A stretch of 64,000 nt of DNA, taken from contig PRDI01000075.1 of assembly GCA_003345595.1 (NCBI GenBank), forward strand, positions 1 to 64,000, read 5' to 3'. The notes beneath the pieces are model-generated. The model searched no databases, was not told the DNA's origin, and saw only the letters and a program-made list of their open reading frames with translations. Of the stretch, positions 8,762 through 62,848 are shown one piece after another. A program made the position numbers and the translations under genes. The number at the start of each line of letters is the position of its first letter. Positions within the stretch are counted from its first letter, which is position 1. This DNA is from Candidatus Thorarchaeota archaeon (GTDB lineage: Archaea > Asgardarchaeota > Thorarchaeia > Thorarchaeales > Thorarchaeaceae).

Positions 8762-9703
8762 TCACTGTCCAAAGGTTGTCTTCCAGACCGCAGCTGCTCC
8801 TGCCTTTTGCAGTGCCCCTGCGACTTGCTCGGTGGTGCGCTTGTCCGGAACAAGAGATATCATCAATCCTCCTCTTCCGGTCCCAGTCAGCTTCGCACCC
8901 AATGCACCATTCCGCAGTGCCTCTTGTATCAAGGTTTCAAGCTCTGGGCAGGACACAGTCAACGAACGTAGCATCTCCTGGTTCTTGTTCATGAGCTGGC
9001 CTGTCTTCTTCAGGTCAATACGGAGCAGAGATTCACGGGCTTCTCTTACGAGATCCTTGTACTCCTCCGCGATGGAGTCAAACCATCTAGGATCACTACT
9101 CTTCTTTACGGCCACATCATCAACGACTTTCTTGGTGCTTGCTGTCAGTCCCGTGGACCCAATGACCAATCCTACCTGTTTCTTGAGCTTCAGCTTCTCG
9201 AACACGGGCACACCACCTGCGGGGTTTCTCACATACCAAATCAGTCCGCCGAAGGTTGATGCGGTATTGTCTATTCCTGAAGGAGTTCCGTGGTAACCTT
9301 TCTCACCCTCGTAAGCTGCTTCGTTGATCTGGTCCGCAGTCAAATCTAGTTGGAATTCCGCATTTAGTGCCCGGGCTAGAGCAACGCAGTTGGCAGCACT
9401 CGCTCCAATGCCAGACGCAGCCACCAAGTTTCCTCCGAGCTTGATGTGGACTCCTCTCTTGGCGAGATCCAAACCTAGATGGCGGATGACTCTGTCTGTT
9501 GAGGCTTTCTGTTCCTCTGCCTTCTCCACCTTATAACCCGGCGTTTCTGGTCTCAAGTCTTCAATAGTCCAACCTGGGGTGTCTGTCCTCGTTACTTCCG
9601 CAGTGGTTTCTGCGGCAATGCCCGCCGCGACTGCGGGGAGTCCATAGACTACAAAATGCTCACCAAACAGGATGACCTTTCCCTTGCCGGAACCTTGACC
9701 CAA
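8762..9703 (-). CDS. mvk: Mevalonate kinase
   Basis: GKVILFGEHFVVYG, GIGASAA, HGTPSGIDN, GAKLTGTGRGG. Confidence 0.93.
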   Translation of the reverse strand: MGQGSGKGKVILFGEHFVVYGLPAVAAGIAAETTAEVTRTDTPGWTIEDLRPETPGYKVEKAEEQKASTDRVIRHLGLDLAKRGVHIKLGGNLVAASGIGASAANCVALARALNAEFQLDLTADQINEAAYEGEKGYHGTPSGIDNTASTFGGLIWYVRNPAGGVPVFEKLKLKKQVGLVIGSTGLTASTKKVVDDVAVKKSSDPRWFDSIAEEYKDLVREARESLLRIDLKKTGQLMNKNQEMLRSLTVSCPELETLIQEALRNGALGAKLTGTGRGGLMISLVPDKRTTEQVAGALQKAGAAAVWKTTFGQ

Positions 9704-9889
9704 TTCTCTTTCTTCCTGTGGTTTAGTTTCGGCGGTTGCCTTTCGCCACTTTTGAACTTATTCTTCGACATTATGCCATACAGCATTGAACGATTGATTT
9801 CAAGGAACGGGGTGTGAGTATGGCACTAGGTCGACGGCTCTAATGTGTTCGTGAGAGTGAAGCGCACCCTGTCATGCAGAAGAAGGCCA

Positions 9890-10028
9890 TGGTGGGCCGG
9901 GCCGGATTTCTCGGCCAAGAGCTGGGAGCCAGCTCCTGCGAACCGGCGGCCTCTTGGTTTTGCGCTCGTGGACCACAAGACCATCGAGTCCCGAACCAAG
10001 AATCATAGCCAAGCTAGACTACCGACCC
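9890..10028 (-). tRNA. tRNA-Pro(CGG) with two introns: 37/38 (9959-9989, 31 nt) and 56/57 (9910-9939, 30 nt); CCA encoded
   Basis: Acceptor GGGUCGG/CCGGCCC-A-CCA, anticodon arm CUUGG-UUCGGGA-CCAAG, T arm GCCGG-UUCAAAU-CCGGC after removing two BHB-flanked inserts; 78 nt mature. Confidence 0.93.
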
Positions 10029-10054
10029 ATGCCAACGTGGACTCATGGTGGCAG

Positions 10055-10918
10055 TCATTTAATGGTTTCGTTCGACTGTGCCTGCAAAAACTCCACCGAA
10101 CCAAGGAACACCCCATCAATACTGTAGACTTCAGACGTAGGAAGGTCCACGCATCCACTTTCAAACAGAGGCCCCTGCAACTTAGCACCCTGTTGATTAA
10201 GTGGAAGTCCGGAGATCAGTGTGTTGAAGCTTGGGAGGGTTATCAGAACCCCGTCAGAATCTTCTTGGCCCTGAGGAATGCCGATGTTCTCTCGAAGACA
10301 GTTCTTGTTCAGTCTGGAACGGAGTATGACTGGCAGTGGTCCAGCGTATCTTCTTCGAGTCTGTCTGCCGGGCAATCGCGCCGACACTACTCTTGTTCGT
10401 GTCAGGCTAGGGTGGCTGTGTCCAATCACGATCATCCGTGAATCTATGACCTCTGGCGAAGGCCATGCATGACCATGAACTAGCCCAATGGAGCAATCCT
10501 CAGTCTTACAAAGCACAACTCCTCTCACATCTGCCACTTTGATATTCCTAGGCAACAGGCTCTCGATTGCACCATCATGATTGCCAGGTATCAGAATCAC
10601 GTCCGTATTCTCTGATAGTTGTGTCATGAAGTTCGGGATAGTCTGCCAGTTGAAGGAGCTGTCAGGGGAGATTGTGTGTTTCAAATCACCTATGATATAG
10701 AGCGAAGAAACCGAATGCTTCTCGATTAGGGTTTTGAGTTTCTTGAGCATTGACCGGTGTTCCGACGGGAATGAAATGCCACTGAGCTTGGACAGCTCAT
10801 CATGGAAACCCAAATGTATATCGGACACCAGAAGCGCAGAGAGCGTATCGGTGTGGACTACCAAGCAGCCACTATCAAAGATTGTTTCCATCGATGTACT
10901 GTCTGGATTCGAGAGCAT
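10055..10918 (-). CDS. Metallophosphoesterase (Lhr-associated type)
   Basis: SDIHLG, GDLKH, PGNHD, HGH, GHSHP, LPSFN. Confidence 0.85.
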   Translation of the reverse strand: MLSNPDSTSMETIFDSGCLVVHTDTLSALLVSDIHLGFHDELSKLSGISFPSEHRSMLKKLKTLIEKHSVSSLYIIGDLKHTISPDSSFNWQTIPNFMTQLSENTDVILIPGNHDGAIESLLPRNIKVADVRGVVLCKTEDCSIGLVHGHAWPSPEVIDSRMIVIGHSHPSLTRTRVVSARLPGRQTRRRYAGPLPVILRSRLNKNCLRENIGIPQGQEDSDGVLITLPSFNTLISGLPLNQQGAKLQGPLFESGCVDLPTSEVYSIDGVFLGSVEFLQAQSNETIK

Positions 10919-43026: not shown

Positions 43027-43167
43027 GGGCCAGTGGCTAAGCCAGGTATAGCGACAGGCTCTTACGTTTCTCAGTGGCCCCGCTGGGAGATGGAGATACC
43101 TGTTGGTCGGGGGTTCGAAAACCCCCCATATTCCATGGGGCGATCGACTATCCCCCCTGGCCCGCCA
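43027..43167 (+). tRNA. tRNA-Lys(CTT) with two introns: 37/38 (43065-43097, 33 nt) and T-loop 59/60 (43120-43150, 31 nt); CCA encoded
   Basis: GGGCCAG/CUGGCCC-G-CCA, ACAGG-CUCUUAA-CCUGU, GGGGG-UUCGAAU-CCCCC after splicing; 77 nt mature; TATAAA at 42995. Confidence 0.92.
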
Positions 43168-61321: not shown

Positions 61322-61427
61322 TGGCGCCGCCGAGAGGGCTCGAACCTCTGACCAACAACTGTCTGGCGTTCGCTTTGACTAGCAGGACGGTAACAGGCTG
61401 TCGCTCTGCCGACTGAGCCACGGCGGC
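61322..61427 (-). tRNA. tRNA-Asn(GTT) with 30-nt intron at 37/38 (61361-61390); CCA encoded
   Basis: GCCGCCG/CGGCGGC-G-CCA, ACAGC-CUGUUAA-GUUGU, AGAGG-UUCGAGC-CCUCU. Confidence 0.95.
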
Positions 61428-61906: not shown

Positions 61907-62012
61907 TGGTGGGCCCGGGGGGACTTGAACCCCCGGCGGGCAGGTTATGAGCCTGCTGCTTACGGCGCTCGCTCTGGAACGAGTGGGCTCTACCAAGCTG
62001 AGCTACGGGCCC
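61907..62012 (-). tRNA. tRNA-Ile2(CAT) with 29-nt intron at 22/23 in the D-arm (61961-61989); CCA encoded
   Basis: GGGCCCG/CGGGCCC-A-CCA (Ile-type acceptor, not the A1-U72 initiator), GCAGG-CUCAUAA-CCUGC; BHB helix UGGU/GCCG with AGA and UAA bulges. Confidence 0.88.
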
Positions 62013-62770: not shown

Positions 62771-62848
62771 GCCCCGGTGGTGTAGTCCGGCCCAGCATTG
62801 GGGACTTTCGCTCCCCCGACCCGGGTTCGAATCCCGGCCGGGGCACCA
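62771..62848 (+). tRNA. tRNA-Glu(TTC), intronless; CCA encoded
   Basis: GCCCCGG…GGGGA-CTTTCGC-TCCCC…CCGGG-TTCGAAT-CCCGG-CCGGGGC-ACCA; TTAATAA at 62738. Confidence 0.97.

Follow-up and report, generated by a model that had tools for sequence, protein, structure and literature searches.

Does a stretch of Thorarchaeota DNA in which standard searches recognise no tRNA nevertheless encode a working tRNA-Pro(CGG), and if so, how would its two inserts be removed and where did the second of them come from? The gene in question occupies positions 9890-10028 on the minus strand of the window, the 64,000-nt stretch of DNA analysed here. Read from 10028 to 9890, it gives a 139-nt precursor that starts with GGGTCGG and ends with CCGGCCC-A-CCA, the CCA being encoded at 9890-9892. 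Exon 1 (9990-10028) comprises the 5' strand of the acceptor stem, the D-arm, the 5' strand of the anticodon stem and the anticodon loop up to G37, with the anticodon CGG. It is followed by a 31-nt intron at 37/38 (intron 1; 9959-9989, precursor nt 40-70). Exon 2 (9940-9958) contains A38, the 3' strand of the anticodon stem, the variable loop, the 5' strand of the T-stem and U54 U55 C56, at which point a 30-nt intron interrupts the T-loop at 56/57 (intron 2; 9910-9939, precursor nt 90-119). Exon 3 (9890-9909) completes the molecule with A57-U60, the 3' strands of the T-stem and acceptor stem, A73 and CCA. All these segments lie on the minus strand.

Once both inserts are removed, 78 nt remain, which ARAGORN accepts as tRNA-Pro(cgg) and folds into a regular cloverleaf whose T-loop reads TTCAAAT. 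The spliced molecule possesses the anticodon CGG, G37, A73, the pairs G1-C72 and G53-C61, and T54...A58; A73 and G1-C72 are typical for the discriminator and acceptor of archaeal tRNA-Pro. The 5' half of the gene shares 89-100% identity with Pro genes in related genomes, and among named genomes it matches Candidatus Thorarchaeota MAGs. The gene identity, both intron positions, the insert lengths, the cut rule and the 78-nt UUCAAAU cloverleaf, all proposed in an earlier note on this DNA, were found in the sequence. ARAGORN detects no tRNA in the unspliced precursor, nor after removal of intron 1 alone; once intron 2 alone is removed, it recognises the gene and places a 31-nt intron at 37/38, the canonical position. 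The Rfam tRNA model also misses the unspliced gene, and a permissive Rfam scan of 9700-10250 is empty. Thus both programs overlook the gene, as the earlier note had expected of standard scans. Over the whole window, ARAGORN reports one tRNA and Rfam, at the gathering threshold, three. A protein-coding reading was rejected, as the overlapping ORFs at 9845-10441 (plus strand) and 9826-9999 (minus strand) have no Pfam family above noise. Judged from its sequence and that of its relatives, the locus is very probably a genuine Thorarchaeota tRNA-Pro(CGG) gene with two small protein-spliced introns.

All boundary pairs were scored by the archaeal rule. It places a central helix of 4 bp (H) between two 3-nt bulges, each of which is cut behind its second nucleotide, and adds helices on the inner (h') and outer (h) side. 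Intron 1 presents a strict hBHBh' motif. Its central helix UUCG/CGCA has three of four pairs, the bulges are GG|A and AA|A, the inner helix consists of CUCG/CGAG followed by three further pairs, and the anticodon stem serves as the outer helix (scores H3, h'4, h7). It resembles the canonical 37/38 archaeal hBHBh' intron in position, bulges, cut rule and flanking helices, but one of its four central pairs is replaced by a U.C mismatch. Intron 2 has a relaxed HBh' motif, in which the exon bases C51 G52 G53 U54 (9942-9945, minus strand) pair with the intron segment GCCG (9912-9915) into the helix CGGU/GCCG with four of four pairs, including one G.U. UC|G and AG|A form the bulges; the inner helix, ahead of the 3' segment GCCG-AG, is a hairpin of 10 bp (9916-9938). 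The outer helix is absent (scores H4, h'10, h0). The helices, the bulges, the U.C mismatch and the 10-bp stem are all present as first described in the earlier note. Intron 2, whose motif the note called a BHB, lacks the outer helix and is therefore of the relaxed HBh' form and not a full BHB.

Dinucleotide-shuffled introns with the same boundaries matched the motif quality in only 0.7% (intron 1) and 0.1% (intron 2) of 20,000 trials, and moving the boundaries by 1-4 nt destroyed the motif of either intron. The T-loop insert might instead be cut elsewhere, either at 57/58, which would leave UUCGAAU, or at 59/60, as in most related T-loop introns. UUCGAAU is also a legal T-loop and the sequence permits a 1-nt shift; in addition, T-loop introns of other genera lie more often at 59/60 (L006, L019, L022, L029). 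However, a shift of +1 leaves zero of four central pairs, and a 4-bp helix joined to an inner helix is formed at 56/57 only. A cut at 59/60 would moreover produce UUCGCAU, with C58 replacing the conserved A58. The boundary is also set independently of the motif by intron-less orthologues (L003, L004, L009), which carry the uninterrupted TTCAAAT. Both other registers, having no central helix, were rejected, and we regard a cut at either as extremely unlikely.

Comparison with a second genome of the same genus (G001) revealed how the gene is conserved. Over a 161-nt region, G001 is 93% identical to the assembly under study (G000), and all three exons are 100% identical. All seven differences fall in the two intron hairpins, with none in the central helices or bulges, and the flanking sequence diverges. 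Upstream of the gene, an 18-nt block, ACGAAACCATTAAATGAC (10054-10071, minus strand), spans -43 to -26 from the mature 5' end. This block is retained in G000-G003 and nearly so in G016, and the adjacent bases diverge; the tRNA-Arg genes possess an analogous block, CGAAGAGTCTATAAGT, at an equal distance upstream. The two blocks are probable BRE/TATA promoters. The TATA-like block extends over the stop codon TGA (10055-10057) that ends the metallophosphoesterase ORF lying upstream (10055-10918, minus strand).

The G000 assembly (2.73 Mb in 129 contigs) is 83% complete, and no second Pro(CGG) gene was found in it, though the missing part may hold another copy. The other Pro genes of the assembly are UGG (C27, with an intron at 37/38) and GGG (C49, with introns at 37/38 and 59/60). 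Standard scans detect 21-22 tRNA genes in this assembly, in agreement with a report that standard tools cannot recover complete tRNA sets from Asgard archaea (PMC5829648).

Given such inserts, the locus could be read as a decaying tRNA pseudogene with two unremoved insertions, the CCG codons being read by tRNA-Pro(UGG). The failure of ARAGORN and Rfam to recognise the unspliced sequence, the mismatch in the central helix of intron 1 and the missing outer helix of intron 2 would all fit decay. On the other hand, G000 and G001 have identical exons but differ in introns and flanks, the promoter block is conserved, and the splice motifs of both inserts stand in the exact register that restores the cloverleaf. 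In addition, exon nt 51 covaries with its intron partner among the 21 sequences of alignment A2, described below, which derive from many isotypes. Most tRNA genes of G000 are interrupted; interruption is the norm in this genome and therefore no sign of decay. Altogether, a pseudogene appears very unlikely, and we retain the reading of a functional, spliced tRNA-Pro(CGG) gene.

The position of intron 2 imposes a particular geometry on the precursor. The bases C51 G52 G53 can pair either with the intron segment GCCG or with nt 61-63, so that the splice motif and the inner T-stem are mutually exclusive. The earlier claim that the intron-2 motif needs an open T-stem is therefore correct by geometry, as 51-53 are shared by both pairings. 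In a nearest-neighbour model of the intron-2 region, the T-stem-closed fold makes up ~70% of the ensemble against ~14% for the central helix, with local energies of -25.7 kcal/mol for the T-stem-closed fold and -20.8 kcal/mol for the BHB fold. The central helix of intron 1 has a negligible predicted probability in the thermodynamic model. The minimum-free-energy fold of the precursor, which keeps the T-stem and forms UUCG/CGAG, was rejected as the substrate; it has no 5' bulge, hence is not a BHB and does not fit the known cleavage rule. Alternative precursor folds are expected for non-canonical introns (bioRxiv 10.64898/2026.10.13.758758, introduction), since the exons contribute half of the BHB motif at any intron position. 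It is reasonable to suppose that the T-arm would reach its final fold only after splicing, which is the sense in which the earlier statement that splicing must precede final folding may be taken.

The genome encodes the enzymes that such splicing would need. It contains two EndA-family proteins (PF01974/PF02778), one of 188 aa (L035, 1474-2040, minus strand) and one of 241 aa (L036, 1087-1812). The 188-aa protein can be aligned over its entire length with the α subunit of Aeropyrum pernix (3P1Z_B; E 4.5e-49) and with the catalytic subunits of Sulfolobus tokodaii and Pyrobaculum aerophilum. Its loop segment GQPVGIRKPKSAEFDKPL is covered by these alignments, whereas nothing corresponds to it when the enzymes of M. 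jannaschii and M. kandleri are aligned. The residues aligned to the A. pernix Tyr, His and Lys are retained, the His being the residue replaced in the 3AJV mutant. By these alignments, the 188-aa protein is a crenarchaeal-type EndA α with the specificity loop, and its 241-aa paralogue is likely the structural subunit. The ligase RtcB is also present (PF01139, 561 bits; contig C78, 1-1236), although its gene runs off the contig. Asgard archaea reportedly possess an (αβ)2 EndA with an L1 loop that confers broad specificity (PMC5829648), and the two EndA genes of G000, together with the loop, agree with that statement.

From these components, we propose a pathway for the maturation of this tRNA. 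The precursor, with its encoded CCA, would probably be transcribed from its own BRE/TATA promoter. A heterotetramer-type EndA, composed of the α subunit with its Crenarchaea-type loop and the second subunit, would cut after the second nucleotide of each 3-nt bulge, acting on the near-canonical hBHBh' motif around the 37/38 intron and on the relaxed HBh' motif around the 56/57 intron. At the latter site, C51 G52 G53 U54 and the intron GCCG would form the 4-bp helix in a precursor T-arm whose inner T-stem pairs are open. RtcB would then join the exons, and the T-stem and the T-loop/D-loop elbow would form only once the 56/57 intron is removed. Transcription, cleavage, ligation and the order of folding are read here from sequence features, and we hold the explanation as a whole to be highly probable.

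The T-loop intron of tRNA-Pro(CGG) is a member of a family-wide class of ~30-nt mini-introns. A covariance model (R1) comprising H, bulge and hairpin was built from nine sequences. In G000 it identifies three copies, namely those of Pro(CGG) and of a tandem Arg(CCG)/Arg(GCG) pair on contig C96. Within the family it finds 21 copies in 15 of 86 genomes, covering at least seven of 16 genera and residing in Pro, Arg, Phe, Leu, Ala and probable Lys tRNAs as well as further tRNAs. By contrast, a search of 125 other Asgard genomes from 26 families at E <= 0.01 with strict filters gave no match. In the alignment A2 of the 21 sequences (L045-L066), 87.5% of cells are paired, compared to 23-46% with the partner columns slid, and 11 of 14 pairs show compensatory changes; as these sequences were picked by a model that contains the structure, the pairing counts are biased upward.

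The exon side of the central helix is the most informative part of this alignment. G52 and G53 are invariant, whereas exon nt 51 and the intron base opposite it covary (CG in eight, GC in five, GU in three and UA in one of the 20 distinct members). The match of nt 51 to the intron is informative since the T-stem of each tRNA already limits the choice of this base. The mini-introns would dock on the near-universal G52 G53 U54, for which one matching base opposite nt 51 may suffice. The hairpin tip of the 56/57 introns is unpaired and conserved, with AYTYC embedded within CTGAYTYCCAG (A2); the AYTYC core also occurs in the 59/60 introns of Pro(TGG) genes (L005, L006). Pairwise identity within the class has a median of 60% and a 90th percentile of 73%.

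Several further tRNA genes of the window and genome are interrupted. On the plus strand of the window, 43027-43167 is a probable tRNA-Lys(CTT) that is interrupted twice, by an intron at 37/38 and by one of 31 nt in the T-loop (58/59 or 59/60); it scores 29.7 Rfam bits in the whole-genome search and is absent from the gathering-threshold scan of the window. The window also contains tRNA-Asn(GTT) with a 30-nt intron at 37/38 (61322-61427, minus strand) and an uninterrupted tRNA-Glu(TTC) (62771-62848, plus strand). A tRNA-Trp(CCA) of 103-106 nt (61907-62012, minus strand) lies between them, with an oddly placed intron in the ARAGORN call (10 nt at position 41). The tandem tRNA-Arg(CCG) and tRNA-Arg(GCG) of G000 (L037; C96, 21733-21873 and 22205-22346) each have a D-loop insert in addition to the 30-nt 56/57 intron, and their first acceptor pairs look irregular. 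In the same tandem of G002/G003, Arg(CCG) is intron-less and Arg(GCG) has a T-loop intron only. At least five more G000 tRNA genes have T-loop inserts of 29-31 nt (contigs C14, C36, C49, C52 and C86). Together with the two in the window and the Arg pair, this brings the G000 genes with a T-loop intron to at least nine, a lower bound given that the T-arm census accepted only genes with a perfect acceptor stem, U8 and CCA and thereby missed both Arg genes. An intron-tolerant ARAGORN scan of the genome also returned a tRNA-Pyl(cta), which is probably a spurious hit on an interrupted gene.

The syntenic locus allows the history of the introns to be traced across the family. The order metallophosphoesterase, tRNA-Pro(CGG), GHMP kinase is common to G000, G001, G002, G003 and G016, which represent several genera, and the upstream gene is also retained in G027, G007, G013 and G010. 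At this locus, G000 and G001 carry introns at 37/38 and 56/57, and G002 and G003 carry one 30-nt intron at 39/40. G010 has the 37/38 intron only and G027 a 59/60 intron only, and G016, G013 and G007 have no intron. By parsimony over these sequences, the 56/57 intron would be a gain in the G000/G001 lineage. The 39/40 intron of the G002/G003 Pro(CGG) gene follows the 30-nt design and scores 47 bits with R1, although it belongs to the R1 training set. Its reading as a transposed copy of the 56/57 intron is not supported, as their 70% identity does not stand out from the class background. For intron 1, a blastn-short search for relatives in G000 returned nothing beyond chance.

A gain of this kind raises the question of a donor, and the intron may have been copied recently from a tRNA-Arg of the same genome, a proposal that we put somewhat short of probable. 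It adds to the main explanation and is not an alternative to it. The 56/57 intron is present at the locus in G000 and G001 only, the T-loop being uninterrupted in G002/G003, G016, G013, G007 and G010. Its 30 nt match those of the 56/57 introns in Arg(GCG) and Arg(CCG) of G000 at 26/30 (87%) and 24/30 (80%), respectively. For comparison, the introns of the Arg(GCG) orthologues of G000 and G003 match at ~22/30 (~73%; manual count on A2). With only 30 nt compared and a design shared by the whole class, which yields the identities given above, a match of 26/30 is suggestive, not decisive. The Pro and Arg genes also have identical T-arm exons, GCCGGTTC...AATCCGGC, and the intron is found in G002/G003 in Arg(GCG) only, Arg(CCG) and Arg(TCG) being intron-less. 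On the other side, gain is told from loss by parsimony alone. Neither Arg gene was recovered from the G001 assembly, and little cross-isotype copying is reported from other Asgard lineages (bioRxiv 10.64898/2026.10.13.758758). The copy could have arisen by gene conversion through the identical T-arm exons or by a transposition like that of Thermoproteales.

More doubtful still is a broader version, in which the 56/57 intron would be a portable mini-intron still spreading in Thorarchaeota. Its GCC(N) would dock on G52 G53 U54, with one base opposite nt 51 being sufficient, and it would have moved from Arg(GCG) to Arg(CCG) and Pro(CGG) in the G000 lineage. If this were true, the conserved AYTYC loop would mark a factor or mechanism of spread or recognition.

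Whatever the source of intron 2, the locus adds a hidden tRNA-Pro(CGG) to a genome where standard scans recover ~21 tRNAs, a number which implies that the tRNA annotation of Thorarchaeota needs intron-aware methods. The iterative search for non-canonical introns in tRNAscan-SE 2.0 is one such approach (PMC8450103). With its five states, the locus also offers a compact natural series on the gain and loss of tRNA introns in the closest prokaryotic relatives of eukaryotes. The clear covariation between exon and intron in the 56/57 class makes the requirement for the central helix directly testable with recombinant EndA.

The known picture of archaeal tRNA splicing is unchanged by the tRNA-Pro(CGG) locus, since this kind of split tRNA gene is already known from Thermoproteales and Asgard archaea. 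Position 56/57 is among the listed non-canonical intron sites of archaea (PMC4090602). The closest counterpart in the sources consulted is tRNA-Pro(UGG) of Pyrobaculum islandicum, which has introns at 25/26, 37/38 and 56/57 according to the account of Sugahara 2007 given in PMC4090602. As far as that account goes, the two genes have in common the isotype, the introns at 37/38 and 56/57, and BHB/HBh' motifs. In addition, the Thermoproteales host, like the Thorarchaeota host, has a heterotetramer-type EndA with the specificity loop. They differ in that the present gene belongs to an Asgard archaeon instead of a member of Thermoproteota, encodes the CGG isoacceptor, and has two introns instead of three. 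Moreover, its intron 2 belongs to the stereotyped 30-nt class, which was not found outside its family in the 125 other Asgard genomes searched.

Intron-rich tRNA genes with T-arm introns at BHB boundaries and repeated gains have also been described in Asgard archaea (PMC11291895; bioRxiv 10.64898/2026.10.13.758758). These studies agree with ours in the multiple non-canonical introns, the T-arm insertions at canonical BHB boundaries, the lineage-specific repeated gains and the genes missed by standard annotation. Their focus is on Atabeyarchaeia and Jordiarchaeia/Freyarchaeia, and Thor- is not mentioned in the text of the preprint. They report almost no cross-isotype intron families, whereas here three genes of one genome share a T-loop intron. 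New here are that 80-87% identity between the Pro(CGG) intron and the T-loop introns of two tRNA-Arg genes of G000, the five intron states at one orthologous syntenic locus across the family, and the covariation of exon nt 51 with the intron. Large-scale transposition of tRNA introns is known from Thermoproteales (Fujishima 2010, as summarised in PMC4033280 and PMC4090602). Judging by these summaries, the two cases are alike in that related introns reside in different isotypes of one genome; however, the Thorarchaeota copies all sit at 56/57 in identical T-arms. Because the copies share both this position and the T-arms, gene conversion is as likely a route as transposition.
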